Below are positions 3,361-37,747 of a stretch of DNA of 60,000 nucleotides, piece after piece. The notes under the pieces are model-generated. The model was given only the letters and a program-made list of their open reading frames with translations, did no database searches and was not told where the DNA came from. Source of the stretch: Amphiscolops sp. MND2022. Its lineage: Eukaryota. Location of the stretch: positions 18,478,001-18,538,000 of the forward strand of contig OZ076409.1 of the NCBI GenBank assembly GCA_964187785.1, written 5' to 3'. The position numbers and the translations under genes were made by a program. Position 1 is the first letter of the stretch; every line of letters begins with the position of its first letter.

Positions 3361-4424
3361 GACAGCACAACAAACATTCAAGGCTGACAAGCCTCGAAAT
3401 TGCACATTCATAAGACTACAGTACTGTTTTGGAGTCTGGAAAGTTGTTTTTCATGCAGCCAATGTAGTCTAACCCACGGACTACCTTAAGTGACCGATAA
3501 AAAGTAACGTTTTTCCGAACTTTCCCACTTCTATCTTACTTTGTTATTTACTACAAATTCTATTTTTTTACTACGGAGCTTGAAGTTTTGAGCTGGTAAT
3601 TTAAAGCAACTGTTGAAACAGGTTTGAAAAAATTGGTCAATTCAAGCATTTTATTCTTTGGAGGAATGCTTTCAAAAATTTCGGCACTGATATAGTTTTT
3701 GGGATGTCTGAAAGTGTCATTAACGGAGGATATCGACCTTCTGAAATAATTGCACTCCATTGCAATATAATTGCTACGTTTCCAATCAGTTGTAAATAAT
3801 AGCTGGTATGAAAGTAATTGCGCTTTAATTTCAGTCGTCCAATTATTTTTTGACCACCCCTGATTAAAGGAATTGAAAGATTTTGTCCAGCTTTGCCTGT
3901 TTTCTCTTCTCCACTTCAACAGAACTCTACTGAAGCACCTTCAAAATCAGAGAAACAGCGAGTATCTCAGCACATTTCCTTATAAAAACAGTCCTTATAA
4001 ATACGGTTTAGTAAAGTCCAAGAAGCGTAGAAACAAAATATGTGTTCGAATAATATATCTCGAATATCTTCGAATAATATATATATCTTTTTCTCACACA
4101 GTATTGAACAATATGTTGATTATTAGACAGCAGCTAATAAATGTTAATTTTAAAAAAATAATAATAATATTTAAATACATTATTTCACATCTGCTTTAGT
4201 TTATTTGCTTTAGTATTTCTTGGCTTTTCATTGTATTGTGTTAGAAGCTCTACATGTTGTACGTTCATGGTCCTTATTTTTCTGCCTAGATGCAAGTTTA
4301 TATTGACAATTTCAAATATCAATTATCATCTTCCCCAAAAAAATTAATTGCTTATGATGCTTCCCTTTTTGACATTAGCCTCATGCGAAATCTTACCGCA
4401 GCGCATCTTACGGCTGCCAATTAC

Positions 4425-5156
4425 TGTAACGGCAAGCTCTGGTACAGCAACATCAACTTCGACATGTTCAGAAAATTTTGTCAAAAATTCGTTCAAATTT
4501 GACGTGGCACTCAAACATGCTCAAGACGAAGTACCTGCCAGAAAAAGCACCCCAAAAAAGCAGAAATCGCCGCTCGCGACGAACAAGCACCGGAGACGAC
4601 TGAAAAGACGTCCCCAACGCATACAGAACACGGTATTGTGTCAATCTCTAGGAGATATCCATTACTACAGTAAAGGAAACCAGTGTTCCAGATGTTCGCC
4701 TGAGTATCCCTGCGGTATCCTGTGTGGCAACTAGCGCTAGCGCTGGGAACCTGAGGTCAATCTTCATCAAATGACTCTGAACTCTTGATTTCTTGTTGTA
4801 TTTTTCGATGTGGTAAATTAATATGCTCGAGAGCTGTTGTTTAACATCTGTTTATCCAATTTGGCGATTTTATCAGATTCTCCAATATTACGGTTCAACC
4901 TTCATCGATTTTCAGCCCAATTTTTAAAGGCTAGTTGAGCAGTGGTCTTGAGTCTTGCAAGATGCCTGTTACTTTTAGCAGTTACAGACTAGGACCAGGC
5001 CAGAGAGCCTCCTACAAGACGGTTCCCCCACCTTGGGACTGGCTCCTTCGGAGGGAAAATGAGCTAGGGCCGCGGAGATCTAAGTCCCAGATTATATTCG
5101 CTGTTCTAGTTCCTCCACTCTACGTTGCGGTTCAAGCGCCAGCGCTTATCGTTACA
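4425..5156 (+). repeat. 5' LTR (732 bp)
   Basis: Starts TGTAACGGC, ends CGTTACA; matches 22536-23267 except for three transitions seen by eye. Confidence 0.97.
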
Positions 5157-5171
5157 TAGAAACTCATTTTT

Positions 5172-5189
5172 TGGCGACCACAGAGGGAT
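5172..5189 (+). promoter_or_regulatory. Primer-binding site, probably tRNA-Arg
   Basis: TGGCGACCACAGAGGGAT begins with TGG (complement of CCA) and resembles the complement of eukaryotic tRNA-Arg 3' ends (...GGTCGCCA); lies 15 nt after the LTR end. Confidence 0.7.
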
Positions 5190-7877
5190 CGTCTTGGGAA
5201 GCTTTCCCTAGCGGTTTTTAAAAGATCTGGCCCCCTGGTGTTCAGCGCCAAGCCCGTTTTCGACTCTGGACAGGAGAGAAGAGCAGAGTTTTACCTCTTT
5301 TTAGTCGTATTACGTCTTACTGGAACTGGGAGAGGCGTTGAACCAGTGAAAATGCGAAGAAAACATGTTTTCAGGTGCGAAAATGGCATTTTTGGGCATT
5401 TTAGAAGGAAATCGCTCTTTATGTGTGATGTGTTGTATACCCATCAGCGGGTACTTTTTTGCAGGTGTAGAGGACCGTAGCACGTGGCTACGGGTGTCTA
5501 ACAGTTTTTTTGAGCTATTTTCAGCCATTTTATGCCATGCAAGAGGGTAACGGATGGATGGTTGACCATACTCCAGCGAGGCGAAGGAGGGGACAAATCT
5601 TGTGTTGCCTACTTCCTATTCCCATTTCTCGTGGAGACGTCCTAGAGGCATGGTTTTTGGTGGACAGCAAGTACAACGACAGACGGTGCTAATGGTCCCA
5701 CCCGCGTATTTCTATCTGGTCTAGAAGTGGAGAAATAACGTGGTGAAGATGCACCCCCTAGGACCAGATGAGTCGCTCAGATGGAGTATGGTTGGCGAAA
5801 ATTTTGAAAATACACCTCTTTCGATGGAGAATCGATGGTGCAGGTCAGTGACGTTCTACCATAAATGTAACGGCACCCTACGAAGTGCTTTTCTGCGAAA
5901 GAGATAGCACTTTGAGAAAAAAACCTCATTTTTGCGTTTTTTTTTGGTGTTTTTCTTGGTTTCGAGCACTAGTGCTCACAGAAGCCAGGAAAGTGTGGTG
6001 GAAAGTTTTGAAAAAGCAGCTGCAAGGCTCGAGAAAGCCGGCACGAGGCACGAAAGGCGAAGTTGAAGCCTTTGATTGTCATAAAAGTGCCAACTTGATG
6101 CCGAAAAATGTGAAAAAAGCGGAAATTTGGCCAAAAAGGCACCCAAAATGTGAACGTACACGAGTGTGGAAGTGTAAAATGACAGTGTACGGCACTATCC
6201 CAAGTGTAGTTGACCCTCCGGATACTAATTGTAATTTTTGTAGCGGACTCAGGCAGCCTGGGGCTGATACAGTGCGAAAAACTTTTGATTTTTGGCATTT
6301 TCGAGCAGAGAAGGTGCATCAACCGAAAACACCCAGAGCGAAGCTTATTCGAAGAGAGCGGGCTCGAGCGCTCTCATTTTCGATTGTAGCAGCAAAAACG
6401 ACGCATTGTGGTGAAAACTGCGTGCGAAAATTCGTTTTCAGCGTCGAGAAAAACTGAAAAACCTTGAATTTTGGCCAGTTTCAGGAGTGCCAGAGTGTAT
6501 CATCAAAACCTCCAGGGCACTCAATGTTTTCGAGACCGGAGAGCCCGCGCGCTCCTATTTTCTGTATTTATAATACAAACGACGCATTGTGGTGAAAACC
6601 GCGTGCAAAAACTCTTATTCAGTGCTGAGAAAAGTGGAAAAACGCACTGAATTTGATCAATTTTCCACTAAACCGGACTGTCTCTGAGCTAGGGTCGGGT
6701 CATCGATTCCTGAACCCTAGCCAAAAAGTGGTTGCATTTTCGTAACCACCACAAAAAACAGCGTTAGTGCCGAAAATTTGGTGGGCGTATCGCTCACCAA
6801 AGTTGAGAAAAACTCTCTGACGTTTCGACTGCAGAGAAGCATAAAAGGACCAAAAAATTCCAAAACTGCTGGACTGACAGTGCCTTATACCTAACGGGCA
6901 CAGCCAATTGAGGGTTTATCCCAGTGCTACGGATAGTGGGGCGACACGTTGGTCCCATTTTGCCTGCCGTATCACTTTCTGAGATGATCCTCTTGATCAA
7001 TTTGTGAAAAAAGTCGTCAAAAACAGTGTTTTTCCGTGTACATCCTACGTAGTGGGTCGAAACCTCAAATAAGCGCTCGCGCTTCAATTCGACCATTTCG
7101 GTGGCATTGTAGGTGCCTACTGGCATAGACTACCAAGTTTGGTGCCGATCTGTGCGATACTTGTTGAGAAAATAGGAAAAACGTGGCACCCAAAAAGGCG
7201 TGCAAAAAGGCAGTTTTTTCCAAATTTTTCCGAGTAACCCGGGCACCTTAGCCGACGGGTGGGGCTATATTGCAGCCCACCATCGTATCCTGTGCTAGTT
7301 TCTACGTTGCTGCAGAGAATTTGAGCTTGCTAGCTCTTTCCAGTGGATCGCAATCTTGAGAAAGACGTGAGAAACAGTGTATTTCGGTACATAGTGGTAC
7401 CGCACGTCTGTACCTAGGTGAAACTGTGTAGAAAGGGCGCAACTCAAAACTGTGCTCATTTTCGTAAACCTACGTGTACCTAAGATCTGCTGGCCAATTT
7501 TGGGCTGGATACGGCGCTTCCCGTGCATACCCGAGCCTTTGGAGAGTTATCGTGCCAATTTTGAAAAACCCGAAAATTTCTTGAAATCCTTCCTGTGGGT
7601 GACTCGAGACCTTTTGCCCCAAACGAAGTTGATTTTCCAGCCCAGTGTGCTTGTGGAAAAACGCTGTGCAAATTTGAACGGCCTACGAGCCCTAGAACGT
7701 GTTCCGAAAAATCTAGAACATTGAATATCACCAAAATTCTTAAGTGCTCACCGGGACGACCAAGGGATCAGCTTTTGAGTGAAGACCCTGGTACGTTCGG
7801 CGACCCAATTTGAGTCTTCCGAGTAATCGTGAGCGGTAACTCGATCGCTATCGATAAACGCGTTGGCCACCGAACCG

Positions 7878-10800
7878 ATGGCGGTGTCCCATACTGGTTC
7901 ACAATCATGGGTCACGATAGAGGGTTCGTGTTTTTCAGACAACATGTCTGACGAAGTCACTATCGAACAACAGCGAAAGGAGGAATTGGCCGCTATGGTT
8001 CGTCCCTCAGAGAACCCCAGTATTTCTGCAAATTCGCGTCGAACTGAGCAGTGGGTCGACGAAACCTGCCGCGACAGAGCTAATGAAGTGGAAGAGGGCT
8101 GGCCTAATTCGAACATGACCGATGAACTGGCGGCTGAGGAAGGGTGCTCGCGCGCACCCCCGGCTGGAGAAAGGCAACTTGGCTCACAAACTGACATGGA
8201 GCAGGACCTCACTCATGTGGGAGGCATGAGTTACGCGCGACAGCGGGGACTCGGGACCACTCGAGGACCTACCCGGGTCTGTGCCTACGGAAAGCACAAG
8301 AAGGTACGACCACCTCTGCTGCAGGTAGGCGAGCCACGCCAAGAGGCATCCCGTGTCAGGAGTATGACAGGTTCATTGGCCTCATCGCAACGGTCCTCAG
8401 TATACAAGGCAGCGTTATTGGATGCCCAAGCCGGAACCCAACGGGCCCTAGCAGGTCTGGCCAGCACTCGTGCTGAGTGCAATGAGCAACACCTGGCTAT
8501 CGTAGAGAACATTAAAATGATGCAGACGACGATGCGTGAAGACCTGCAGGTCAGTGATCAATTGCGCACCGCGCAGAATGTGCAAACTGCTCGAGTGGAC
8601 ACATTGGGTCACCGGATAGGCGAGATGAATGACACGTTGATGTCTCGCGAGCTGCGCGTGGAAACGCAGATCAACGACTTAAGCAATCAGATGCACACGG
8701 TACTCAATGCCATTGAGGTCATGAGGCGTGAGAGGTCACTCCCGCGGCAGTCCAGTGCAAGTGGAGGCGTGCGGAGCGGAGGTACAGTCCGTGTCTCGGA
8801 GCCGACGTGCCCGAGCCAGGTAGTGAAGTCGGAACTGCCGAGCGCGCTAAAGCCTATCACTTCCAGGCCGGCGGTGCCTGCGCCCCGGAAAGAGGAAGGA
8901 GTAGCCGGAAATTTGGTGATGGCCATGCCTGAAGCAGAGCGCAAGCCTGCACGAGTGCAGATGAGGGGGCATCACGACTCAGCAGAATCATCGATGCCTT
9001 CTGCAACCCAGAGTACCACTCGAGATCAAGGCGTGGACCCGATGTCGACCATCTATCTTGATTCCTCGGTCGAAGTCGACCTATCTAACACCAAAGCAAC
9101 CCTAGGCTCTCAAACCGAGGGAGCGACGTTTGCAACTGCCCCTATTTTGATGTCAGGACCAGATTCTTTATACTGGACCGCGGACTTGTCAGCCGAACAT
9201 GGACTGCCCTCGGGCACTCCCTGTGCTAGCAGCACTCGTAAAAAGGACGAAATCGCTGACCTGTCGATACAAGCTACTCTTGGTAGTCATGACAGGACAC
9301 GCGAAGAGGAGGCCAAGGCCGATGAAGGAGAAGCCATATCCCCCGAGCAGCTGAGATTCACGGCCGCCATATCGAAGGCGATGTCCAAAGAGTTAGCGCC
9401 CTTACTCGCCGGCAGAGACTTGGCTCAGGCGAGGCCCAATGTATATCGCGGGTCCAAAGAAGGATCCATTGATGGGTGGATCCTTATCATGCAGAGATAC
9501 CTGAAGAGAACACAAGCCAAGGTTTCAGCCGAGGACCAGGCTTGGAGCATCATCGGTCACCTCGAAGGTGAAGCCCGCAACTACATTATCAACAAAGCGG
9601 AATCCGAACGTGACACCCCCGAAAAGGTGTTCGAATTGTTATCCAGCCGCTTTGGCGCTGGAGGAAACCGTATGCAAGTGCGACAAGCTTTCCAGAGCCG
9701 CATTCAACAAGAGAAAGAAGACTGGATGCAGTATTTAGACGCTCTAGAGGGTCTTCGAAGTCAAGGATTCCCACAAGAGGCAATCACCACCAAGCGCTAT
9801 GAAATCCTCCAGCGCTTCATGGAAGGAGTACGAGACCCAGCGCTGAGGCGGGAACTGGCCATAGTGTATGCCTCGGAAGTCTTCCTGACCGAGCCACCCA
9901 CGGTGGAATCCCTCCGCTTCACTACCCGCCAATTGCAACGCAACCGTCCAAAACCTAACCAATTCCCTCAACCCTATGACCCTAGACTAGCAATGAGGTC
10001 TCGACCTCATCCCTTCGCGCCACTACCCCCCAACAAAATGATGTTACCACAAGGAGTAATGCCTCCCCCACCTGCGAGTAATGCCCCCAATCAAGCAGCA
10101 GTGCAGCCTGCAGCACGCCTACCCGTTGGCGCGTGCTATAATTGCGGACAAGCTGGGCATTTTGCCCGGGACTGTCCTGCCCGTGATCAAGCTCGCAAAC
10201 CAGTGGCAGCTCCTGAACCAGAAGGCGTGAAAGTCACTGCCGAAGACGTAACTGATGGCGTGTTGGAGAGCTATCCAAGCATTCATCAGTGTGCGCACTG
10301 TGGAGTCTATGACCATGTGGATGTCCCTTGTGGTGAGCATTCCCAAGCTGCGAGGCCTAATGATGAATTGGCCTACAATCGATGGGCTGAAGTGGAATCC
10401 GCTGGTGTGGCCGCTCACACGGTACCCCTGGAAGATGATCGCGTATTAATGCTACACCCAGCGGAGCCCCCAGCGTTTCACCCCCCACTGATAGTTACAT
10501 GTGGGACAAAGCAGATTCAGACGTGCTTGGAGCCCACAACATTCGATCCACAAGGGAGGACGTTGATCTCGATTCATCTTATGCTGGCAGCCGAGCAAGT
10601 GCGCAGACCAACGTTAACTTTGGCAAAACTCTGGGTTGAGCTATCTGTCCTCTATAAACGGATGGAATTGCCCCGCCCAAAACAGTGGCACGTCCCCGGA
10701 GAGTCAGAGACCCTGACTACATACTCGCCAGTACCAGTCTGTGCAACGATGGACGGCGTGGACGTGAAATTCGAGGGCTGTGTGGTGGTAGATGTATTCC

Positions 10801-12989
10801 CACCCGGCTTATGCTTGGGACCTCAAGAGCTGAAATGCTATAATATCAACCACCAAGAACCCACCGGGGAAGCGCGAATAGACGAGCGTGCGTCGCTCGT
10901 TGTCTCTTTTGTGGTGCCACATGCAGCACCTATCCCACTGCGAGGCCTGGTGGACACTGGTTCTGGAGTATCAATACTGACCTTCTCCGCCTTCAACCGG
11001 GTAGCTGCGCGGACCGGAGCGGTCCTGAAACCCTATCAAATTGATTTGTACGCTGCCAATGGGAAGACAATAAAGACTTTCGGACTGGCTGAGCCGATAC
11101 GCTTCCAGTTGGGAGGGTATGAACTCGAAACCAATTTTGTCGTGGTAGATGACACAATGGGCGTGGAGGACTTTCTGTTGGGTCGAAACTTCCTTCGTTC
11201 CTACCAAGTCCTGGTAGATCTGACCTCCATGAAGATAGTGGTGCGAGCACCAGTGAAGCCCGTCTGGCATCATGCACACACCCAGGTAGGTGATGCTTCA
11301 CTAACTACCCCCATTGCCCTGGACAGCGACTTAGTCCTACAGCCTTTCGAGCGTACAATGGCAAAAGCCAAACTTATCACCAACGCGCTTGAACCATTAA
11401 TCTTTCAGACCGTGGCGCTTAACGCCTCGTTGTCTGATCCCTCATTGCAAAATACCATCTTTTTAGAGGACAGCGTGGCCACTGTCAGTGAGACAGGAAC
11501 ACTGTATGTGAGCCTGGTAAACCTCACCAGCAACCAGCAGCGTGTACGATGTGGTGCCCACCTAGGCACGGTAGTGCCTGTGTCTCTAGTATACCAGGCG
11601 GTGCCCCAAAAGCTGGATGCTACAGCGGAAACTGACCACAAAACTGAAGCCGACAACAGTCGAGCAAATTTTGTTTATAAAGTGTACAGTGAAATGAATC
11701 TATCTACTGCTTCTGAGTTAACCTCTTCATCTGAATTTGAGTTTTTGTCTTCTACGGATCCAAGTGAAGCGGGGCTTTCGGAGCGCGAGATTCGCAAGCG
11801 CGCCGATCCCGACCTATTGGCCCCGATCCCTGGGCCCGATTCTCAATTGCAAGAAGTCAAGAAACTCTGGGGCGCTAGCGCCTGCGAGTCCTTAGACAAC
11901 ATTCTTAACGAGTTTGATGACCTGTTCATGAAACGCAAAGCGGTTATTGGCCGCTGTACCATTGCTAAACACACCATAGAGGTAGAGCCTGAGGCTGTAC
12001 CGCACCGTGAAGGTGCTCGAAGAATGTCCCCCGAAAAGGCTGAACGAGCCAACCAGGAGGTTCGGAGCTTATTAGCCTTAGGGATGATACAACCTTCACT
12101 GTCCCCATGGGCAAGCGGTATCGTAATGGTAAAAAAGAAAAGCGGGGAGTTGCGCTTTTGCTGTGACTTCCGACCGCTGAATGAGGTAACCATTAAGGAT
12201 GCCTATCCTTTGCCCCGTATCGATGAAAGCCTGGCACGACTGGGAAATGCAAAGATCTACACCAGCATAGACCTTGCCTGGGCTTTCTGGAAAATTCCCT
12301 TGCGAAAGGCGGACCGCCACAAAACAGTCTTTGCCTGTGAGTTGGGACTCTTTGAATGGCGAAGAATGCCATTTGGCTTGTGCAATGCATCAGCCACTTT
12401 CCAGCGAGCAATAGCGCGAGCGCTGCAAAAAATAGTCATTCGCAAAGGCAGTATGGTCATGGCATACATCGATGACATAGTTATCGCAACTGAGACTGTG
12501 GAAGATCTCATGGCGCGGTTGCGCGAGGTTTTTGAATGCCTCCGCGAAGCTGGCTTCAAGATGCGCGTAGCCAAATGCGACTTCATGAAACCAGAAATCA
12601 AATATCTGGGACGCGTGGTCTCAGCAGAAGGTGTCAAACCGGACCCGAAAGCTGTTGCCAAACTGCGCGATTGGGACATCCCCCGCAACAAAACTGAAAT
12701 GCAAAGCTTCCTGGGATTCGCTAATTATTATCGAGAATTCATCCCGTGGCATGCCAAGCTGGTGGCCCCCCTCCACGCCGTTACGGGACTGAATGCCACA
12801 TTCGCATGGGGTCCTGACCAACAAAAAGCCTTCAACGAAGGAGAGTTCTCGCGCAGCCTAATTCCGAAGGAGAGTTCGTGCTGGACACCGATGCCAGCGC
12901 TGTTGCCATTTCCGGTATCCTACACCAATGGCAAGGAGCTCCCGGAGAACGACGCCTACGACCAATCATATACGGCAGCAAGAAACTGA
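7878..12989 (+). CDS. gag-pol: Gag-protease-reverse transcriptase part of the polyprotein (frameshifted at about 12840)
   Basis: Coiled coil; capsid-like region (HLEGEARNY...FQSRIQQEKE); two CX2CX4HX4C knuckles (10134-10175, 10290-10331); protease LVDTGS (D at 10953); RT motifs LPRID, SIDLAWAF, MPFGLCNA and YIDD (12465). First ATG at 7878; the frame is open from 7863. Confidence 0.95.
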   Translation: MAVSHTGSQSWVTIEGSCFSDNMSDEVTIEQQRKEELAAMVRPSENPSISANSRRTEQWVDETCRDRANEVEEGWPNSNMTDELAAEEGCSRAPPAGERQLGSQTDMEQDLTHVGGMSYARQRGLGTTRGPTRVCAYGKHKKVRPPLLQVGEPRQEASRVRSMTGSLASSQRSSVYKAALLDAQAGTQRALAGLASTRAECNEQHLAIVENIKMMQTTMREDLQVSDQLRTAQNVQTARVDTLGHRIGEMNDTLMSRELRVETQINDLSNQMHTVLNAIEVMRRERSLPRQSSASGGVRSGGTVRVSEPTCPSQVVKSELPSALKPITSRPAVPAPRKEEGVAGNLVMAMPEAERKPARVQMRGHHDSAESSMPSATQSTTRDQGVDPMSTIYLDSSVEVDLSNTKATLGSQTEGATFATAPILMSGPDSLYWTADLSAEHGLPSGTPCASSTRKKDEIADLSIQATLGSHDRTREEEAKADEGEAISPEQLRFTAAISKAMSKELAPLLAGRDLAQARPNVYRGSKEGSIDGWILIMQRYLKRTQAKVSAEDQAWSIIGHLEGEARNYIINKAESERDTPEKVFELLSSRFGAGGNRMQVRQAFQSRIQQEKEDWMQYLDALEGLRSQGFPQEAITTKRYEILQRFMEGVRDPALRRELAIVYASEVFLTEPPTVESLRFTTRQLQRNRPKPNQFPQPYDPRLAMRSRPHPFAPLPPNKMMLPQGVMPPPPASNAPNQAAVQPAARLPVGACYNCGQAGHFARDCPARDQARKPVAAPEPEGVKVTAEDVTDGVLESYPSIHQCAHCGVYDHVDVPCGEHSQAARPNDELAYNRWAEVESAGVAAHTVPLEDDRVLMLHPAEPPAFHPPLIVTCGTKQIQTCLEPTTFDPQGRTLISIHLMLAAEQVRRPTLTLAKLWVELSVLYKRMELPRPKQWHVPGESETLTTYSPVPVCATMDGVDVKFEGCVVVDVFPPGLCLGPQELKCYNINHQEPTGEARIDERASLVVSFVVPHAAPIPLRGLVDTGSGVSILTFSAFNRVAARTGAVLKPYQIDLYAANGKTIKTFGLAEPIRFQLGGYELETNFVVVDDTMGVEDFLLGRNFLRSYQVLVDLTSMKIVVRAPVKPVWHHAHTQVGDASLTTPIALDSDLVLQPFERTMAKAKLITNALEPLIFQTVALNASLSDPSLQNTIFLEDSVATVSETGTLYVSLVNLTSNQQRVRCGAHLGTVVPVSLVYQAVPQKLDATAETDHKTEADNSRANFVYKVYSEMNLSTASELTSSSEFEFLSSTDPSEAGLSEREIRKRADPDLLAPIPGPDSQLQEVKKLWGASACESLDNILNEFDDLFMKRKAVIGRCTIAKHTIEVEPEAVPHREGARRMSPEKAERANQEVRSLLALGMIQPSLSPWASGIVMVKKKSGELRFCCDFRPLNEVTIKDAYPLPRIDESLARLGNAKIYTSIDLAWAFWKIPLRKADRHKTVFACELGLFEWRRMPFGLCNASATFQRAIARALQKIVIRKGSMVMAYIDDIVIATETVEDLMARLREVFECLREAGFKMRVAKCDFMKPEIKYLGRVVSAEGVKPDPKAVAKLRDWDIPRNKTEMQSFLGFANYYREFIPWHAKLVAPLHAVTGLNATFAWGPDQQKAFNEGEFSRSLIPKESSCWTPMPALLPFPVSYTNGKELPENDAYDQSYTAARN

Positions 12990-15900
12990 CCACCACCCAA
13001 GCCAAATATGGGGCACCCAAGCTGGAGATGTTTGCTGCCTACTACTTTATCCTCAAGTACCACAGCTACCTTTGTCCCCGCAAGTTCACCCTGAGAGTCG
13101 ACAACCAAGCCCTATTCTGGTTGAAAACCTACTCCACGGACCAAGCATTGCTTGGACGTTGGATTATGACACTGGACAGGTATCACTTTCGCGTGGAACA
13201 TAGACCACGAACGCAGCACCGCAATGCCGATGGCTTGAGCAAACGAACCAATGAATATCGATGCCGAGAACAGCAGCTTGCGCAGCTGCCAGCTAGTGGA
13301 GAGCGTTGGAACTTCCTCTCTGCCGAGGAATTCGATAACCTCCCCATAGCCCCATGGTTCGACCTGCAAGGTCGAATCATTCCAAATCACCCTGACCTAC
13401 CACCGCATCTGCAGAACTTGGAGCCTAAGGCTCCTGACCAGGCACTCCGTGTGCTTCGCCGTGTGCAACGTGCGAACAAACGAAAACGACAGGCGGAGGC
13501 GTTAGCCGCGCCTTTACCGCCTCAGCCTCCACCCGTGTTGCAAAAGCACGGAGACTTCTACCCAGACTATCCTGAAGACTGGATAGATGTCACCACTGAG
13601 GCCAGCGAGGATTACCTACTACCAACACATGCAGTAAATGTCCCCTCGCGCACCATCTATTCTGTGACGGAAACGAGTAACGCTATGCTACAGAATTCTC
13701 CTGGTGGCGTGCGCGAGTCGATCATGGCTCTCAAGGATATCGACACCGAGCTCCATGAACACACACATACCGTGCATGATATCAAGGACTTGGTTTTAGC
13801 CCAAAACCGCGATCTCCACGTGCTTGCACTGAAAAAGCTCGTGCAGTGTGAATCCCTAGATAGCGACGTGTTTCCCGAGAACGTGCGTGAGTTCGCACGT
13901 AATTACTTCCGCCAGAAAAGGGATCTCTTGTTCATAAACAAGAATCAGGTCCTTTGCGTGCAGTACTCCCCCACCCAACGCCCACTGCACGAACGTCCGT
14001 GCATGATCATAATGCCTCAATTGTACCAGCACGAGATTCTGTTCCGTGCACACGACGCAATGGGACACCAAGGCATCTCAAAGGTGGTAGCTCGAATTCA
14101 AGAGCGCCACACTTGGCCCGGCATAAGGCGCAGTGTCGGTCGGTACATCGGCCAATGCCTCACCTGCCAACAAGTACGTGACAAGCCTGGCGACGTACGA
14201 TTCCAACTGAAAAACATTCAGAGTGGCTACTTCAACGAGTTGGTCCAATATGACCACTTAAAAATTTGCCCCTCTGATGACAACAACACCGGCATTTTGG
14301 TCATCATTGACCATTTCTCTAAATTTGCAGAGGCAGTCCCTTGTAGTCATCATGACTATGACGCAGTGACTACCTCACGATTGCTGCTGCAGAAATGGTT
14401 TGCCCGCCACGGCACCCCCACTCGCATGCAATCCGACAATGCCCCCAACCTTACTGCTGAAGTCTCTAATGAGTTTCTAAAGGCAGCTCACGTCACTAAA
14501 GTGACCTCCACTGCCGGACATCCACGAACTCAAGGCTTGGTGGAACGACGAAACCGTACCCTCTTAACCTTGTTGCGAGTCTTTTGCTCACGTCGCATGC
14601 GCGACTGGGACCAGTGCTTAGATGAAGTGATCGGTGCCTATAATTCCACCAGGCACGCCACTACAGGCTTCTCGCCCTACATGTTAACAAGGGGTGTTGA
14701 GAAAGCAATTCCCCTCACCTTTTTATACCCTGAATTTGCAGCCAAGTCCTTCGATACGCATGAAGCATACGTGGATCATGTGTTGGCTCGCCAACAAGAA
14801 ATTCACGACTTGGTTCGGCGCAACACGCACCAAGCCCAATTGCGCCAAAAACTGAAATATGATCGTGCTATCCGCACACGAGCTTACCAGCCGGGAGAGC
14901 TCGTCTGGGTTTTTTGCTGCTACGTGCCGCAAAAAGGCTCTCCAAAATTGTTGCGCGCCTGGCGTGGCCCGCACAAAATAGTGCAAGTTTTTCAAGAAGG
15001 ACGAGTCTATGTATTGGACACAGGCCAAAAGGTTCATTTTGAGCGCCTGAAACCTCATAATAGTGGGCCTCTTGAGCTCGCCACCGCGCAAGCGGACAGC
15101 GGCGAAATCGTGGTACTCATGGACCCTGTTCCTGAACGTTCTATTGAAGCAGTTGATGATGACAAGTCCCAGCCTTCATATAAAACTGAACAACTACTTT
15201 CAGAAGCATCTGACGTATCCTTGCCTTCGCGCAAGCAACATTGGATGGATACCCGTCTGCGCACAAAGTTACGTGCTGGAGGTTCCCGCATGCACTACCA
15301 GCAATTTGACTACTCAACTTCGGGCACTGACGACGAGTTGTCCGAAGTCATGCTACCGGTACTTCCTGATCCCGCTGATGCCGATCGCAGGGAGCCCGAA
15401 CCCCAACTCCCTTCAGACCAGTCAATATCACCTACCCATCACCTGCCTCAACTATTCTCCGACCATGAGCGCGCGCGCTCTCCGTCACCACGAATATCCT
15501 CTCCCGAAAGACAGCCCTCTTTACTGGGCACATCGGCCCCACTACTGACAAATCCATCACTGACAAGCTTCCTCGACAACTATCCCATTTGGCCGGCCGC
15601 CCCTTCCCTTCCTCTAAAATCTGCCACTGAGGACGACGACGCTCAGTCCAATGTCCCTACTCTTCCCACAACATTGCCCGGAGCGGGGACCGCTCCTTCT
15701 TTTAAAAGGGGGAGGGGGAGACCACCCAAAACGCGAAAAAGGCTGGTCAGAGCGAAGGCAAGAACGAGGAAGAAAGAAACTACAACAACACTGCCGTCGG
15801 AAACAGCAATACCGACCGAAGCTTCCGAGGTCCCCCGATATCAACTGAGAAGCAGACGGCAGCCACGCTATAAGTGCGGGACCTGTGGGCTGCGAGACTG

Positions 15901-16879
15901 TGTTTGCTTGCTAGCCGTCAATGAGAACCGGAGGGTTCCCACTGGAGCCCGGGGAATCCCTCCAGAGCGGGGAGAAAATCTAGTACATCGCCTTACGGTA
16001 AGAGCTGAAAAGACTTATTCCTCCCTGGAACGACACGGAGACCATCCCGTGGACACTATCCTGGAGAAGTTATCATTACCTGGAGTAGCGAAGGCCCCAT
16101 GTCCTCGCTTCAAGGAGTGGACTAGCGATGGAAAAGGGTTAGAGTTCACCCTCGCAACGGTGATGCCCCCAGTACCAAGCAACATTGCTTTTGGCCCCTT
16201 CAACTTCGAGCGGGAGCCTGTGCAAATGGTCCGATGCATCACCGCTGATCTTCTCTGTGACAAATACGGAATTCACGTGGACCCGGGCGGAGTATACAGC
16301 CCAGCGCCGCACTGGTGGTTGCTGGTCACTGCTCCACGAGTGGAGACAATAGTGGAACCGTTGCACCTGCTGTCCTGTTTGGAAGGTCTGAGGACCCTCA
16401 CTACCGCGGATCTGATACTTTGCTTTCACATCATAGACTGGTATCGTGGCAAAGTAAAATTTGCGTGGTGGTTGGAGCTGATCATCACTTGTTTCCCCAA
16501 TTATCCTCGCATTAAATTGCTGGATGAGTTGACTCATACCTTCGAGATTCCGCTTCCTCCAAAAGCCGTTTTGAGCACCCTAGACACATGGGTTAGGGCG
16601 ACCAGTGATAACCGAGCGATGCCTCGCTCGGTATGGCAAGACCTGGCTGCAATCCAGGGGCGTACGCCCCGCGTATGCTTGCCTGCCGACAATGGGCCGG
16701 GGAGAGAGATTATCTACCCGCGAATCCTGTATCCAGCCCCAACAGAACACCTCTCATATGATGTGACTGATTTTCTTCAAGTAGAAGGTGACATAGTGTT
16801 GGCGTGTCCCGCTGACCTAGAGACAAACTCAGCTGCTACGAGAATGCGGCAAGGAGAATGTGTTCTCCTTACGTCCTAA
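12848..16879 (+). CDS. pol: RNase H - integrase - extended C-terminal tail of Pol (continues the upstream ORF after a frameshift)
   Basis: LAQPNSEGEFVLDTDAS, KLEM, LRVDNQAL and NADGLS (RNase H); H-x4-H...CLTC zinc finger; QYD...SDN...VER catalytic triad; WRGPH (GPY/F); AT-hook KRGRGRPPK at 15704-15730. Confidence 0.95.
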   Translation, partial: LAQPNSEGEFVLDTDASAVAISGILHQWQGAPGERRLRPIIYGSKKLTTTQAKYGAPKLEMFAAYYFILKYHSYLCPRKFTLRVDNQALFWLKTYSTDQALLGRWIMTLDRYHFRVEHRPRTQHRNADGLSKRTNEYRCREQQLAQLPASGERWNFLSAEEFDNLPIAPWFDLQGRIIPNHPDLPPHLQNLEPKAPDQALRVLRRVQRANKRKRQAEALAAPLPPQPPPVLQKHGDFYPDYPEDWIDVTTEASEDYLLPTHAVNVPSRTIYSVTETSNAMLQNSPGGVRESIMALKDIDTELHEHTHTVHDIKDLVLAQNRDLHVLALKKLVQCESLDSDVFPENVREFARNYFRQKRDLLFINKNQVLCVQYSPTQRPLHERPCMIIMPQLYQHEILFRAHDAMGHQGISKVVARIQERHTWPGIRRSVGRYIGQCLTCQQVRDKPGDVRFQLKNIQSGYFNELVQYDHLKICPSDDNNTGILVIIDHFSKFAEAVPCSHHDYDAVTTSRLLLQKWFARHGTPTRMQSDNAPNLTAEVSNEFLKAAHVTKVTSTAGHPRTQGLVERRNRTLLTLLRVFCSRRMRDWDQCLDEVIGAYNSTRHATTGFSPYMLTRGVEKAIPLTFLYPEFAAKSFDTHEAYVDHVLARQQEIHDLVRRNTHQAQLRQKLKYDRAIRTRAYQPGELVWVFCCYVPQKGSPKLLRAWRGPHKIVQVFQEGRVYVLDTGQKVHFERLKPHNSGPLELATAQADSGEIVVLMDPVPERSIEAVDDDKSQPSYKTEQLLSEASDVSLPSRKQHWMDTRLRTKLRAGGSRMHYQQFDYSTSGTDDELSEVMLPVLPDPADADRREPEPQLPSDQSISPTHHLPQLFSDHERARSPSPRISSPERQPSLLGTSAPLLTNPSLTSFLDNYPIWPAAPSLPLKSATEDDDAQSNVPTLPTTLPGAGTAPSFKRGRGRPPKTRKRLVRAKARTRKKETTTTLPSETAIPTEASEVPRYQLRSRRQPRYKCGTCGLRDCVCLLAVNENRRVPTGARGIPPERGENLVHRLTVRAEKTYSSLERHGDHPVDTILEKLSLPGVAKAPCPRFKEWTSDGKGLEFTLATVMPPVPSNIAFGPFNFEREPVQMVRCITADLLCDKYGIHVDPGGVYSPAPHWWLLVTAPRVETIVEPLHLLSCLEGLRTLTTADLILCFHIIDWYRGKVKFAWWLELIITCFPNYPRIKLLDELTHTFEIPLPPKAVLSTLDTWVRATSDNRAMPRSVWQDLAAIQGRTPRVCLPADNGPGREIIYPRILYPAPTEHLSYDVTDFLQVEGDIVLACPADLETNSAATRMRQGECVLLTS

Positions 16880-17195
16880 GGTGGGGGAGATTCTCACCAT
16901 TCCTCCCGATGTCAACCCAAACCCCAATCAGAGTATTCACTTGCTAATAATCAGAGCAAACCAGCGTGCTCCGCTGCTCGCAGACGACTACCTACGTTGT
17001 ATGACGCACTTGATACAGCGTTTGATGGAGAAGGGATCCACGAGGGTCCACCTACCTATACTGGATCCAGAGCGACCCGCCCTCTCACTAGTAAACTTAT
17101 ATCATACCCTAACGAATTTGCTGGAGGGTACTGGTATTCACGTGGTGCTACATAACCGCGTGTACGTGTCCATTCTGAACATAGGGCTAGAGTAG
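16836..17195 (+). CDS. Frameshifted C-terminal end of Pol (second half of the second macrodomain-like unit)
   Basis: The alternative frame reads LRECGKENVFSLRPKVGEIL...HLPILD...GTGIHVVLH and joins TNSAA of the upstream frame to complete a TARG1-like pattern; stop TAG at 17193-17195. Confidence 0.7.
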   Translation, partial: LRECGKENVFSLRPKVGEILTIPPDVNPNPNQSIHLLIIRANQRAPLLADDYLRCMTHLIQRLMEKGSTRVHLPILDPERPALSLVNLYHTLTNLLEGTGIHVVLHNRVYVSILNIGLE

Positions 17196-17472
17196 CCCAC
17201 CCAAAACATTTTTGTTGCCCCCTTATTCAATTTGCCCACCCGATAATCGTCATGCCTGGGAAGAAGTCTTAAACTATCCCATGAAATATATATATTGTAA
17301 CGTAGCGTTTGATAACTTCTATCTTTGTGTTCTAATTAGTTAGTTGAACTACAATTTAAACTTGTTGCGGTTCCCCTATGGAACCATCTTTGCTGCTGAG
17401 TGATGAGCCTTAAGCTCTCCCTATAATGCGCTTGGCAAGCCTAACGGTAATCCTTTTTAGACCTATGATACT

Positions 17473-20400
17473 ATGGCTTATTACCCCAACAACACGGTAC
17501 CTATTGCCACGACGGGACCTCACGCCAATAGGACCCAAGAATTGCCTGCGCGAGCGCAGGGGACTAACCAAGTCCAATACGTTGAAGAGAGATTGAGGAA
17601 CGGCCTCTCACCGTTAGCGGTAGCGGGCGTGGCCGCCCTACTTACCCAACTAGACTCAATGCAGACGCTGCCTGGTGTATCCGTGTCTCTTGTGACGGAA
17701 GTAGCCGGTTACCGTCGCACCCTAACCTGCCAAAACAATGCGTGGGATGGCCACGATCTGACGCACCAGTTCCTAGATGAACGGTCCACCACAATGCTCG
17801 GACCCAGCCAAGGTACGAGATTCGAGCAAGAAGCCTCACTGTGTATGGTGCCTGCCAGCGTAGCAACAATGCCTCCTCCTCCGATGGTCGCATTGCCCCC
17901 ACCGGCGCCAAATTCAGTACCAATGACGCCAACTTATTCCGGTTCGCCTGCCTTTGGGACCTCATATCGAGCGCCGCATATGGTATTACAAACCACTATT
18001 AATGCACCAGTCTCTGATCGGGAGCCCTCGGGGTCCCGGTTGCCACCCATACCCAATCCAGAGCTAATGGGAAGGAGTACCAGCGAACAGGCCGTAATTG
18101 TGGCTTTGCAAGCAGTGGCGAATTATCCCAACTCAACCGATTTTGTCCGTGCTGTGGAGCAGAGAATCCCTGGATTAGCCACGTATCTGCAAGCTGCTGC
18201 TCAGCCCGCGGGCTGTGACCCTCCTGCCCCCTTAGTTGAAACAGCCTCTATGGATATGGAAATTGTCGCTGGACCGAGTAACAGCGTAAGCGCTGCCTCT
18301 GGCATACGAGAAGAAGCGGGAAGAAAGCGGCTGACTGAGGAGACCGCCTCAGTTACCCCAGCTGGCTCGGTGACCGAGAGCCCGACTAGTCGTCCCCCTC
18401 CTGACAAACGCGCTGTTGTACCTCGACCCCAGCTGAAAAGTGTAGTCATCCCTAGGCCTCTATATCGAGTGGGTCATCTAGGCCGAAGCGCTCCTCAAAT
18501 GTCTTTGGCAGACGCGATCGAACAATATGGAGATCCGGATGCAGGCTCGGAAGTGAGCTCTGTGCCCTCGGGCACCAATCCAACAGCCATGTCCCTGGAG
18601 ATACCTGAGACGGTGGAAGAAGCCCATCCTCCAGCCTTCCTCCCTCCATCTGACGACGTATCCGGCTCAGTAGTCACCAGTGATAGCAAACGCATTTGGA
18701 TGGCGGCCGAGCATCTCTATCCCAGTCAATGTGCTATCAAGAAAAGGACTCCTCCAACTGAAACGGAGCAAAAGGAGATCAACCGGACCACGATACCGGC
18801 GCAAGTCACACGCTCGCTCCGCCCCCGTGACGCAGACATGTCGGAGCAGGCTTGGGAACAGCGTGCTCGAGAGCAGCTGCCTATGACAACCAACGACTAC
18901 ATGGCACCCTTGCAACACAATATCACTGAGCAGTTTCCCGCACGGTATGTGTTGCGAGAGGGTGAGACGTGGGAGGCGAATGCCCGTTACGCCCGCAACC
19001 TGAGATCCTTGAAACCCTTATTGAAAGCAGCTCTGCAGCGTGCGCGCTACTGCATCGCAGTTGAGTCCACTTGCCGAAGTGACCTTCCTATTGATAATTT
19101 AATGCCTGATGTGCTGGTGCTAACTATGCCCCTGTCTCGCTTCGCCGAGGTCGCTGAGATGGTCGGAGCCATATACGATCCAAACTAAAGAGGATCACAA
19201 AAGGAACCACACCCACAGCGAGTGATCTTCGCCAATCTCCTGGATCACATGGCTTGCGAAGGATTGCTGCATGACCTGGCCGCGATAATGTCCAATGTCC
19301 GACGACTGGAAGACATTGCTGCCCTGGTGAACGAGGTGGTTGGTGCAATGGAACGTGCCGCAGGGATCCTTCGGGGTCGTCTGGGAGCGCTCGCGCTCTT
19401 TGTATCCCCACCGGGATTCATGTATTGGCCACGCAGTCTGCAGCAGTTCGTCTACATTCTGCTGGAGGTGTGCAAGGCGTGCAGAGTGGAATTCGCCATC
19501 TGTGCACCGAACTTGCGCGTGGATCGAGAGGACCTGCGCCCGGATACCATATCATATCCTGCCTTCTTTGCCGTTGTATCTAGAGCGCTGGTGGCTATAG
19601 AACGCTCGGGAAACGCCCAGCTCACCATTGACGATGCCATCCGCTATGACTATGGAATGCGGATGGGCAGACTGGCCTTTGACCTTGACGGCAACCGCAC
19701 CGCCCGAGAATCCAATGTAACTGAGCGAGAGGCTGTTCGCCGGTACAATTGGCTAGTGCGAAAGGATAAAGAAATCCCAGTGCGCGCAGAATTAGCCGAT
19801 CTGACGAAGCAAATTGGTGCATGGCCTGCGGCGCGCACCGTCGAAAGAACGATTCCTCAGATCCGCTTCGCCTCGGGAATCGAGCCCGTGAAGCTGCCTG
19901 TAGGGCTGCGATGTATCATAGCAATAGAAGCAACAAATCTGAAAGCAGAAGTCGACGCCGCAGCTACAACTTATGCTCATTGGTACCAGACTAGGTTTAC
20001 CACTAGAGCCCTGGCAGAAGTAGCTCGTTAGCTCGATTGTCCATTGGAAGCCTTCTGTACCAGTCTCGGTCTAGGATGGAACCTAGAGGTGCTAACTTCT
20101 GAGTTCTCGCTGACCTCTACGCAAACGGACAAATTGTTAGAAACAATTGGGGAGGCAACCGTCGGAGAAATACTAGCGCTCGCGCTAGCGATGGGCCCAA
20201 CCAAGTTCGTAGCCGGACCACTGGCTTTGTCAGTCGACATGGTAATTGCCTGCGACCTAACCATGTTCTACAGCTACTTGGTCCTGGCACAAGGACAACT
20301 ACGCAGTCTGACCCGTTGGGGACACTTGATGACTTCCAAAGACCAGCAAGACTATTCCGCACAACTGGAGCGCATGCGTGCGTCAATCCAGCACTGGCTA

Positions 20401-21780
20401 TACTCCACCCTGGTGTTCGCCTCCGGCCTATTCGTGGGCGTAGACCAATCCCAACCACTCCATAATCCCGACCAGCATATTTCCCGGGAAAAGGCAGGAT
20501 TCCCCATGCCGCAGCAGATTGCAGACCTCACCCTGGCAGAAGTAGAAGACTTTGTGGCGGCAATGGCTCCTGTTTTGGCCCCTATCTTTGGCGCAGTGGG
20601 CGTGTGCCGGTACCCAACAAAACCATTGGCAACGGCCGTCCAAGTGCACATGGTCTCTTTCAATACCTACCTGCGAGGCCGTCCTTCACTGGCGTACCCA
20701 AGGGTGATACATGCAGTGCTGAGTGGTGAGGTGCCGCATGGGTACACGACCATAAAATCCGAAAGAGAGTTGGAGGAGAACTTGATGGGCTTGCTGCGCG
20801 CGCGCACCAGGAAAGCATGTCCTCTACCCCGGGAGCATGGACCTGTGAACTGGTATTCCGCACCTCTCAGTTTGGAAGGGGTTCCCTTTAGATTCCCCTG
20901 GAGTCAAGAGTTCGTGAGAAAGGTGATTCGCGCCAGCACTAGTGCTGGTCCACCCGTGGATCCTCTATACTGCTTCAAATGCATCGCCTTCCCAAATCGT
21001 TACTGGAAGGAGCCGTTAGGTTGGCCCAGGGCAAAACCCGTTGGACGCGCCCCAGAAGTGTTCAACCGCCAAATCCAACACTTGGAGTCAGCCCAGATCC
21101 CAGGATGGATTGAAGGCGCTGCTCAGATTAGGCAGAGAAATCTCCAATCCCGCGTCATTCCATTCCCCAGGAAGTCGGCATGGAAGCCTACGGGAAAGAT
21201 GACCATGTCTGGAGATATGTCCATCGTCCAGCATGATGAGATAAATTCCGTGTTGGGCTCAACAGAACGAGCGCGATGGGAAGAATACTGTCTAGAGTTG
21301 GAGATTGCAAGCTTCCCTAAATGGAAGAGAGCTTGCGAGCTCTGGAGCCAATCTGGATGGATCTCACGCCGTGTAGCACTAGCGGTCGAGAGTAGAGCAG
21401 AGATGGCGAGACAACAGGCGTTCGCGCCTACCATGCTCGCAGCCACGATGGCGATGTCCTTGGATCGGCCCATCTCTCAACCGATCACCATTAATCTTCC
21501 AACCCATGACTTGGAGCCAGACCCAGTTGGCCCGTCTTCGTCGCGAACGAGCCCTGAGTCCTCACAGCAGCAATCCGGAGAGCACACTGCCGAATTGACT
21601 CCCAATGCAGCACTAGTGCAGCCTATTGCCGAGTTGTCGCTCCCCGAAAGTCCGTCGGACTCTGAAACAGTTACAACCGGAGTCTCTCCCCGACGTCGAG
21701 CGTCAGTGTCGACCGACAACCCAGAACAGAACTCAGATGATGCCACTAAAGAGCGGACCCGACGCAGTTCAGCTCAATAA
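17473..21780 (+). pseudogene. ORF3 of the retrotransposon (~1,435 codons, env position, two premature stops); SGNH-hydrolase-like central domain
   Basis: ORFs 17473-19188, 19222-20031 and 20044-21780 share one frame and are separated only by single stops (TAA 19186, TAG 20029). Composition is similar to pol. Pro/Ser-rich N- and C-termini; no signal peptide seen. Confidence 0.85.
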
Positions 21781-22535: not shown

Positions 22536-23267
22536 TGTAACGGCAAGCTCTGGTACAGCAACATCAACTTCGACATGTTCAGAAAATTTTGTCAAAAATT
22601 CGTTCAAATTTGACGTGGCACTCAAACATGCTCAAGACGAAGTACTTGCCAGAAAAAGCACCCCAAAAAAGCAGAAATCGCCGCTCACGACGAACAAGCA
22701 CCGGAGACGACTGAAAAGACGTCCCCAACGCATACAGAACACGGTATTGTGTCAATCTCTAGGAGATATCCATTACTACAGTAAAGGAAACCAGTGTTCC
22801 AGATGTTCGCCTGAGTATCCCTGCGGTATCCTGTGTGGCAACTAGCGCTAGCGCTGGGAACCTGAGGTCAATCTTCATCAAATGACTCTGAACTCTTGAT
22901 TTCTTGTTGTATTTTTCGATGTGGTAAATTAATATGCTCGAGAGCTGTTGTTTAACATCTGTTTATCCAATTTGGCGATTTTATCAGATTCTCCAATATT
23001 ACGGTTCAACCTTCATCGATTTTCAGCCCAATTTTTAAAGGCTAGTTGAGCAGTGGTCTTGAGTCTTGCAAGATGCCTGTTACTTTTAGCAGTTACAGAC
23101 TAGGACCAGGCCAGAGAGCCTCCTACAAGACGGTTCCCCCACCTTGGGACTGGCTCCTTCGGAGGGAAAATGAGCTAGGGCCGCGGAGATCTAGGTCCCA
23201 GATTATATTCGCTGTTCTAGTTCCTCCACTCTACGTTGCGGTTCAAGCGCCAGCGCTTATCGTTACA
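22536..23267 (+). repeat. 3' LTR (732 bp)
   Basis: Direct repeat of 4425-5156 with TG...CA ends. Confidence 0.97.
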
Positions 23268-24049
23268 TACTGTCAACAATGATCCAACATATTGGCTCAA
23301 GCCCAGACGTTAATCTGACTTGGAACAGATTAAGATGAACTTAATCACATAATTTTGTTTTGGTTGGATAATGATAATAAGATGCTCGAGGTAGTAAGAG
23401 CCCCGCATTGACAGCACTTTTGAGAAGTCCTCTTCTTACTGCGAGGGTTCGGATCTTATCTATCAGGAAAATGAATAGAGGCCTTTCCCCACCAAAATTT
23501 GAAAGTTTCATTTTCTTGAACGTATGCATAATACAATATGGCAATTAGTAGAATATTAAAGTAACAAAACGTCCAAGCAGGACGGAAAAGGAGCATAATC
23601 AGCTCTACGAGTTTCTGCCCGGGACATTAGAGAACCAAATTCAGACCAACTGAAACGTATTCGTTTATTATTCACAGTCACTAATTTCTACACGAAAAAA
23701 TCATCAATTAATCTTTAGTTAGTGTTATAGATCCAGCAGTTTCTCACGAACAGCGACCAACTTTTTTATTGGAAGAATAATGCAAAAAGGTCACTACTAT
23801 CTGTTATATAAAGCCTATTTAGGTTTTTCAGGTATGTTTTGATTTGCCCCTGTGACAGGGTTTCGATACCAACAGGTATTAGGTTCAATAACAGCAACCA
23901 ATTATATCCTCTGATTAGTGTATATTCAACCGATTTTGATTTACATTTTGTTCGGCTATAGGGTTTCGGCAAGACCCCCTTTTTTCGATCCTCTCGTTTT
24001 TTGATGTTTCGTTTCAGCAACGAGTTTTAAAAATTTCGTGGCTCCATTA

Positions 24050-36800: not shown

Positions 36801-37711
36801 TTTTTAGTCGGTGCACTTTCCTTTAAACTTAAAATACCCGTCTCTTTCAGTGACATTTTTCTCTTCTCCAGACCACAAACCTCTCACTAATCGGTCCACT
36901 TTTTACAGGAACAACTAAAACTACTGAAGCCAAGTCCGGGCAGCGGAATTTTAGTGCAGAGGGTTCCCCTTTCATTTTTTCTATTTTTTAATGTTACTTA
37001 AAAAAACCGGACGAGACTAAAGGTCCACCTTTCATTTTTTTCGACGCTATGATACTTTTTTTGAATTTTTTCTTGCCTCTGTAGGATCCGCCCATCAATT
37101 TTATTGAAGCCTTCCCTTGTAATATCCGAATTGAAGCGCTATCTACAAACTTTTGACGTTATGTTCGAACTATATTGAGTTTTATTGAGGAGAAGGCGGA
37201 AGTTTGAACTCAGGAGTTTTTCATGAAAACGTCCTTCGCATCTTTTAAAAAGTGCGCTTTTTAGTAGGCGTTTTTAGCAATGAAAGAGCCCTACTTTTTT
37301 TTCTGTATGACAGACTCCAAGCGACGAAATTTATTTTCAGTTTGTTCAACTGAACACATACCTCCGAAACCTCACATCGGAGACGCATCTAAGTTAGTTA
37401 AAAGGGTCCCAGTTTAATTTGTCTTATTCTGACGTTACATACAAAACAAGACGAGACTGAAGGGTCCCCCTTTCATCTTGTTTCGGCACTGTGCGACTTT
37501 TTTTTCGAATTTTTTTTACTCCAAAGGGTCTCCCCTTCAACTTTTTTGATATTTTGCAACAAACTGGATTTTCAAGAAGCCCAAAGGGTCCCCGCTTTTA
37601 CAATTTTAAAAACTTTGAACTGTTTGAGCTTTAGATATAGCGCCGACTTCAGACCTTCCCGTCTTGTTGAGCCCTGGATGTAGCGCCGACTTTAGACGTT
37701 CCCGTCTTGTT
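36801..37711 (+). mobile_element. HINE copy (possibly composite) with a duplicated 3' end
   Basis: TTTTTAGTCGGTGC start; AAGGGTCCCC cores; GCGCCGACT + hairpin + TGTT end present twice (ending 37668 and 37711). Confidence 0.7.
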
Positions 37712-37747
37712 TGTTTATTGTTGATCATGCAAGGAAATGTATTTTGA

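Follow-up and report, generated by a model that had tools for sequence, protein, structure and literature searches.

A predicted pair of rewired TARG1-like macrodomains fused behind the integrase of a Gypsy-type retrotransposon in Amphiscolops sp.

Integrase tails decide where retroelements land, and to our knowledge few kinds of tethering domain have been recognized. We analyzed one such tail in a 60,000-nucleotide stretch of Amphiscolops sp. MND2022 (assembly GCA_964187785.1, contig OZ076409.1, positions 18,478,001 to 18,538,000; hereafter the window), where a TARG1-like stretch forms the C-terminal end of the Gag-Pol of an 18.8-kb Gypsy-type long terminal repeat (LTR) retrotransposon. By fold, the closest described protein is human TARG1 (also OARD1 or C6orf130; PDB 4J5R, 4J5S, 2LGR), which belongs to the ALC1-like macrodomain class together with DarG, SCO6735 and Poa1p. 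The closest functional analogue is the SARS-unique domain of coronavirus nsp3 (SUD-N and SUD-M), whose two macro folds stand in tandem in a polyprotein, lack the glycine motif and bind G-quadruplexes but not ADP-ribose (PMC2674928; papers are cited by PubMed Central number). Among retroelements, fish epsilon-like endogenous retroviruses are likewise LTR elements with a captured macrodomain, present as macro-domain open reading frames (ORFs) (PMC4977317), the integrase chromodomain of chromoviruses forms the end of Pol (PMC12440569), and Tyr537, Leu539 and Arg540 of foamy-virus Gag anchor in the acidic patch of H2A-H2B (PMC6282019), an anchor that sets integration sites (PMC6282019; PMC6042332).

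The tail of the element in the window is arranged as follows.

15059..15838, + strand: low-complexity linker with an AT-hook, KRGRGRPPK (15704-15730)
15839..15907, + strand: YxLR motif, then a four-cysteine knuckle (C-x2-C-x4-C-x-C); predicted nucleosome acidic-patch anchor and zinc site
15980..16669, + strand: domain 1, with a predicted TARG1-like macro core (16172-16528) that lacks the Gly43/Ile44 loop and helix, and with N- and C-terminal extensions
16736..17195, + strand: domain 2, predicted to be a TARG1-like macro fold that is complete but has its cleft rebuilt; frame break at ~16836, natural stop at 17193-17195

A sequence-only reading of this DNA had proposed two tandem units of TARG1/OARD1 type, here called unit 1 (the core of domain 1) and unit 2 (domain 2). 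The motifs on which it relied are found where it had placed them, namely the AT-hook at 15704-15730, the Cys cluster ending at 15907, RCITADLL at 16232, WLLVTA at 16316, FHIID at 16424 and IKLLDE ending at 16528, followed in unit 2 by EHLSYDVTDF from 16745, the frame break at ~16836, LLIIRANQ at 16941, HLPILDPERP at 17049 and HVVLHNRVY at 17139. The proposal itself is supported by structure comparisons and in part by profile comparisons. In profile-profile comparison, units 1 and 2 match each other with a probability of 91.5 (score 43.2; best of 39 column shuffles 18.3), well beyond shuffles, which establishes them, at the level of sequence, as homologous duplicates of each other. Unit 2 also matches intact TARG1-like domains (probability 95.3, score 54.1; shuffled best 17.5). 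The corresponding match of unit 1 is weak by sequence (probability 7.1, score 22.3; shuffled best 17.7), and its profile link to TARG1 thus amounts to 7% directly and 91% via unit 2. When a profile of 56 relatives was searched against 177,635 PDB sequences, the sole matches were five human OARD1/TARG1 chains (E 0.013-0.017, to unit 2); a 13-sequence profile had no PDB match. Pfam gave no match on either unit and no Macro match in the 56 members, and in the ESM Atlas the neighbours of unit 2 belong to the macro clan (0.89-0.91, no more than a lead) and unit 1 has no usable match.

Structure models link both units to TARG1. Unit 2 was folded by AlphaFold2 within a natural 430-amino acid relative, P0009, with a predicted local distance difference test score (pLDDT) of 83 and a predicted template modelling score (pTM) of 0.53. 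The top match of the unit 2 model (P0009 residues 274-419) is TARG1 (Foldseek E 2.3e-9, TM 0.83 on the target; VIA Z 16.1, root mean square deviation (rmsd) 2.5 over 138 residues), and DarG, Poa1p and other macrodomains follow. For domain 1, the window stretch 15980-16669, which has no frame break, was folded on its own, giving a 230-amino acid model (pLDDT 90, pTM 0.84) in which unit 1 is the core of a larger domain extended on both sides. The core (model residues 65-183) has TARG1 as its top match as well (Foldseek E 2.7e-5, VIA Z 11.0, rmsd 2.9 over 117 residues), whereas the fold search hardly reached the extensions (residues 1-63 and 184-230). Both units are therefore predicted to have the ALC1/TARG1-like macro fold, at only 12-18% identity to human TARG1. 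A tree of 25 domains places unit 1, unit 2 and the intact domains in one group each. The stem of unit 1 is long (2.3), and both units are set apart from the intact domains by a long branch; the root is not shown by this tree, in which long branches meet. Compared with TARG1, the units lack the Lys84/Asp125 dyad, carry Glu or Tyr at Gly123, stand in tandem and are fused to a retroelement polyprotein, and unit 1 has lost one loop and helix and gained N- and C-terminal elements.

The macro pair is truly fused in frame behind the integrase: the copy in the window is broken at ~16836, but other copies read through. The frame between the integrase C-terminal motif and the natural stop is unbroken in 13 of the 29 closest other copies, and that between unit 1 and the stop in 19 of them; counted from the Cys cluster, the open copies number 19 of 29 in family A, 28 of 30 in family B, 18 of 20 in family C, 10 of 10 in family D and 2 of 10 in the older family E, all of these fractions being biased upward, towards intact copies, by the picking of best matches. 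Many copies, including those of sister families, have a single Gag-Pol frame of ~3,190-3,310 amino acids with the macro pair at its end. Pol thus does not end before this region, and the proposed fusion to a Gypsy integrase stands.

Because gag and pol form a single frame, the pair would be made one-to-one with Gag. Such a stoichiometry would suit an RNA- or cDNA-binding module that acts in the particle or against RNA silencing, rather than at chromatin. TARG1 is known to bind RNA independently of its pocket, and its G123E and G43E variants retain this binding (PMC5928194), while the SARS-unique pair binds G-quadruplexes as mentioned above (PMC2674928). However, the two domains are mostly neutral to acidic, and the pair sits directly behind the AT-hook and YxLR motifs, so that we consider such a role quite unlikely.

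The cleft of both units departs from that of TARG1. Residue numbers are those of human TARG1, with an offset of six from the PDB chain, which agrees with the positions that PMC5087735 and PMC5928194 give for Lys84, Asp125, Gly43, Ile44 and Gly123; residue counts are of the alignment rows having a residue in that column. An active hydrolase of the TARG1 type has the Lys84/Asp125 dyad and the glycine diphosphate loops (Gly43, Gly121 and Gly123), and neither feature is present in either unit. In unit 2, Lys84 is replaced by Arg in 42 of 46 sequences (Lys is kept in 1 of 46), Gly43 by Ala (43/46), Gly121 by Asp (40/41), Gly123 by Glu (36/41) and Leu124 by Arg (37/40), and Asp125 is kept in none of 40. 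In unit 1, Lys84 is replaced by Ala or Ser in 37 of 40 sequences (Lys in 0/40), Gly121 by Asp (35/38), Gly123 by Tyr (31/38) and Leu124 by Arg (35/38), Asp125 is kept in 0/38, and the Gly43/Ile44 loop and helix are deleted outright rather than mutated (a 15-column gap). The loss of the ADP-ribose glycine loops in both units, claimed earlier from the letters of this one copy, is thus confirmed, with Ala, Asp and Glu in unit 2 and, after the deleted first loop, Asp and Tyr in unit 1. The replacement residues are near-invariant, and the term 'degenerate' in that claim undersells them, while it is correct that the canonical catalytic and diphosphate residues are gone. An Asp followed by an Arg three residues later is common to both units, from which we infer that the cleft was likely rewired before the units were duplicated.

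The first-strand Asp of unit 2, which we take to be the adenine-binding position, is kept in 40 of 45 sequences. Together with Pro-Ala-Asp-Leu, Ser-Ala, the Arg/Lys at the Lys84 position and Asp-x-Glu-Arg, it lines the old cleft, and these residues are kept even in proteins that are 37-41% identical over unit 2. It is conceivable that unit 2 is a remodelled active or small-ligand site, in which the Asp-x-Glu-Arg loop would bind or act on an adenine-containing ligand (a nucleotide messenger, the end of a nucleic acid or another kind of ADP-ribose adduct) and unit 1 would serve as a structural partner. The conservation along the old cleft agrees with this, and ALC1-like hydrolases have diversified in mechanism (PMC7050489; PMC9411070). 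However, two acidic residues have replaced the diphosphate-binding glycines, TARG1 neither binds ADP-ribose nor is catalytically active once it carries G43E, I44E or G123E (PMC5928194), and G128E, the equivalent of a Gly123 change, strongly cuts the activity of SCO6735 (PMC9411070). We regard a remodelled site as unlikely. The Glu at Gly123 in 36 of 41 unit 2 sequences likewise makes ADP-ribose-directed targeting, as had been suggested for this tail, unlikely.

Selection on the pair was estimated from nonsynonymous (dN) and synonymous (dS) divergence between copies. In the comparison of family A with family D, the dN of unit 2 is 0.070 and its dS 2.0, a ratio of 0.035 (95% bootstrap 0.020-0.068), and unit 1 has a dN of 0.060 with dS saturated; the ratio is 0.025 for the integrase C-terminus and 0.15 for the linker. 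Since dS is saturated between most families, the usable ratios are those for A-D and those within families, of which the family A values (0.36-0.53) are raised by post-insertion mutations and the family B and C values (0.05-0.28) are biased low by best-protein-match picking. The A-D comparison establishes, from codon divergence, that the units are under purifying selection as strong as that on the integrase C-terminus, and a check that the sequence-only reading had called for thus comes out in favour of maintenance. At the same time, judged by protein identity, the tail drifts faster than the enzymes: reverse transcriptase (RT) identity to the window copy is 89% in family B and 77% in family C, and identity to P0009 in units 1 and 2 is 61% and 46% in family B, and 45% and 41% in family C.

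Three database proteins (P0174, P0317 and P0199) contain all or most of the same pair. For P0174 and P0317, none of the candidates scored in this genome was a close match (best 36% and 45%, respectively), and the pair is therefore probably present in further organisms; a metagenome scan with P0317 found no locus. Because the replacement residues are conserved, dN/dS is ~0.035 and the pair is also found in proteins lacking a close match in this genome, the macro pair is, as far as sequence comparison goes, rewired and not decayed. The loss of canonical residues and the broken frame of this copy could have been taken as signs of a neutral, decaying relic of a captured gene. This reading is hardly credible and is refuted by the selection data, namely the ratio of 0.035 with saturated synonymous sites, the frame and length of the pair kept across six or more families, and the invariance of the new motifs.

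Capture of a macrodomain is by itself ordinary among LTR elements. Another, unrelated Gypsy family in this genome (L064-L066) has a single intact TARG1-like domain after the integrase (E 3e-27 to TARG1), and in the Gypsy Pol database proteins P0304-P0312 an intact TARG1-like domain lies between RNase H and integrase. These single domains keep the canonical motifs (P0291 against TARG1, E 3e-27). The capture is alike, and in L064-L066 it is also C-terminal, but none of these domains is tandem or rewired. The RTs of the single-domain elements are only 25-35% identical to that of the element in the window, pointing either to independent captures or to a single, very ancient one. TARG1/macrodomain capture by LTR elements is thus recurrent, and what is new is the rewired tandem pair. 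The earlier statement that single macrodomains are known in retroelements and a tandem C-terminal arrangement is not can be extended on its first part by these intact domains in other Gypsy lineages; for its second part, no tandem rewired arrangement was found among the papers listed in literature searches on macrodomains/TARG1 and retrotransposons, which covered neither Repbase nor subscription journals. In the single-domain family (L064-L066, L090, L091:1219-3567), the one copy inspected has a 5-bp target duplication, and a third ORF of 783 amino acids has a hydrophobic start and no good Pfam match.

Repeated capture by separate Gypsy lineages suggests that LTR elements are under pressure from ADP-ribosylation. 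It is in this light that a decoy or inhibitor has to be weighed, in which the pair would mimic host macrodomains and jam a defence linked to PARPs or TARG1. Intact TARG1 domains in at least two other, distant Gypsy groups hint at such host pressure, and the tail diverges faster than RT (89% RT identity between families A and B, with 61% in unit 1 and 46% in unit 2 between B and the nearly identical family D). However, the pair probably cannot bind the mark for which it would have to compete, dN/dS of ~0.035 over the whole domains (rather than at single sites) gives no sign of an arms race, and resemblance to human TARG1 is limited to 12-18% identity. The idea of a decoy against a host ADP-ribosylation defence, raised in the sequence-only reading, has no direct evidence in its favour, and we consider it improbable.

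The features upstream of the pair hint at chromatin. Downstream of the AT-hook, the motif Y-x-L-R-x2-R-x-P-x-Y-[KR]-C-G-T-C-G-x-R-x-C-x-C is kept in all sister families, and the spacing of its YxLR is that of Tyr537/Leu539/Arg540 in foamy-virus Gag, except that it stands here on an integrase tail and not on Gag, with binding weakly predicted. When the 36-residue YxLR-knuckle peptide was modelled with H2A and H2B of this genome, the complex score was 0.58 (best of three controls 0.02), with contacts agreeing between runs to at least 70% and partner pLDDT of at least 47; the score mark is reached by 51 of 78 solved pairs and 2 of 108 mismatched pairs, and scores of 0.60 or less comprise 5 of the 78 solved complexes and all four passing mismatches (of 180). 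The modelling hints that the peptide may contact H2A-H2B.

Taken together, we tentatively prefer, at slightly less than an even chance, a reading in which the macro pair is a non-catalytic binding module within an integrase chromatin tether. An ancestral element would have captured a TARG1 gene, the cleft would have been rewired, and the domain would then have been duplicated. The tail would stay on the integrase, its AT-hook, YxLR anchor and knuckle holding DNA and nucleosomes, and the macro pair would bind some host protein or nucleic acid, one that either promotes integration or protects the complex on its way in. A bolder version is doubtful: Gypsy-like elements of 18-20 kb, forming a clade not yet described and marked by 3-bp duplications, TG..CA ends and an orphan second ORF (ORF2), would have made an ADP-ribose eraser into a new reader, whose rebuilt Asp-x-Glu-Arg cleft would recognize a chromatin mark, a nucleic-acid structure or a host factor not yet linked to macrodomains, with the foamy-virus-like acidic-patch anchor steering or protecting integration.

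Several observations weigh against the tether. The chromatin evidence concerns the upstream peptide and not the macrodomains, and peptides lie outside the calibration of the complex tool, whose score may reflect memory of solved arginine-anchor complexes. The P0009 model gives the two domains no fixed relative position (pTM 0.53), and cleavage by the protease within the 250-amino acid linker might separate the tail from the integrase. The macrodomains are not basic overall (isoelectric point 5.0-7.0, with one of six unit 2 sequences at 9.0), and plain nucleic-acid binding is not favoured. SCO6735 is an active hydrolase without Lys84 and Asp125 (PMC5087735; PMC7050489; PMC9411070), so that loss of the dyad alone is no proof of inactivity, and the earlier label 'catalytically dead' calls for caution. 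Finally, in contrast to what a strict targeting domain would give, no shared target site was seen in 19 family B insertions or in the family A flanks, and any tether would therefore be general rather than site-specific. Chromatin targeting, suggested for the macrodomains from the sequence, thus remains plausible, but from the upstream motifs and with no fixed target site seen.

If strong selection has kept the macro pair after its ADP-ribose chemistry was lost, it would represent a new class of domain in integrase tails, and eukaryotes would have their own parallel to the SARS-unique domain. The latter differs in macrodomain class and in virus, its likeness to the units is one of fold alone (Z 6.5-6.8), and its ligand is known. 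With its two domains, the pair is also a soluble target with which a new macrodomain ligand could be sought. It occupies the position of the chromodomain in chromoviruses; membership of the element in that group was rejected, as Pfam scans gave no chromodomain and the folded tail consists of two predicted macro folds.

The remaining features of the element are listed below.

4425..5156, + strand: 5' LTR with TG..CA ends, preceded by the target duplication TAC at 4422-4424
7833..12989, + strand: Gag (PNMA-like), protease and reverse transcriptase (Pfam, ORFs)
12818..15058, + strand: RNase H and integrase (Pfam, ORFs)
17461..21780, + strand: second long ORF (ORF2), with two in-frame stops here (codons ending at 19188 and 20031)
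22536..23267, + strand: 3' LTR, followed by TAC (23268-23270)

Within Gag-Pol, the CCHC knuckle of Gag (10134-10175) has the standard C-x2-C-x4-H-x4-C form, the protease lies at 10947 and the RT motif YIDD at 12465, and the zinc-binding domain, core and C-terminal domain of integrase span 14051-15058. This copy has a further frame break at ~12840, near the RT/RNase H junction. The Pfam domain order (Gag-like region, protease, RT, RNase H, integrase zinc domain and core) and the LTRs are those of Ty3/Gypsy elements (Metaviridae); the RT tree was made of sequences gathered in this analysis. The insertion is recent, given that the LTR pair is identical at 731 of 734 aligned bases, and the best-scored 40 tail matches in the 1.07-Gb assembly are 96-100% identical, which sets a lower bound on the number of copies.

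The target duplications depart from the usual 4-6 bp of Ty3/Gypsy elements. In family A, a 3-bp duplication is present in seven of seven paired LTR ends, one of which permits a longer match owing to an A run, and in three of five lone LTRs; in family B it is present in 17 of 19 located copies (20 fetched). The loci concerned are L098-L127 and L172-L211. Insertion flanks mostly have a GC content of 33-42%, the same as the rest of the window, and contain assorted repeats, and no nesting in their own family was seen among the family A and B insertions. A duplication of 4-6 bp is described as the rule for all LTR elements except Troyka, which has 3 bp (PMC12440569). The clade described here breaks this rule by combining 3-bp duplications with TG..CA ends, and annotation tools that demand 4-6 bp could miss such elements. 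Although Troyka/Kuafuortervirus shares the 3-bp duplications, it has CG..CG ends, a C-x2-C-x8-10-H-x4-C knuckle, LTRs of 100-400 bp and an interior of at most 7.7 kb (PMC12440569), in contrast to the TG..CA ends, C-x2-C-x4-H-x4-C knuckle, 732-bp LTRs and 17-kb interior of this element, and membership was rejected on the LTR ends and the knuckle.

ORF2 encodes ~1,450-1,530 amino acids, with aligned parts 29-43% identical across families A, B and C. It is open over 1533 codons in a sister-family copy (L088:863-5461), has no Pfam or PDB match and shows no clear membrane segment beyond an N-terminal stretch. Between the 5' LTR and gag lies a 2.7-kb leader (5157-7832) with an internal 101-bp repeat at 6362 and 6543, and a TGGCG word resembling a primer site begins ~15 bases past the 5' LTR. 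A long insert without Pfam match (~13240-13800) separates RNase H from the integrase zinc domain.

Elsewhere in the window, three repeat copies spaced 1,708 bp apart occupy 38166-41881, a tandem array of 171-173 bp lies at 53592-54750, and two perfect palindromes have arms of 93 bp (47604-47789) and 83 bp (52064-52243). A dispersed repeat family with CCAAAGGGTCCCC is present in both orientations, at 474-811, 37433-37804, 43383-44660 and 48455-48555.

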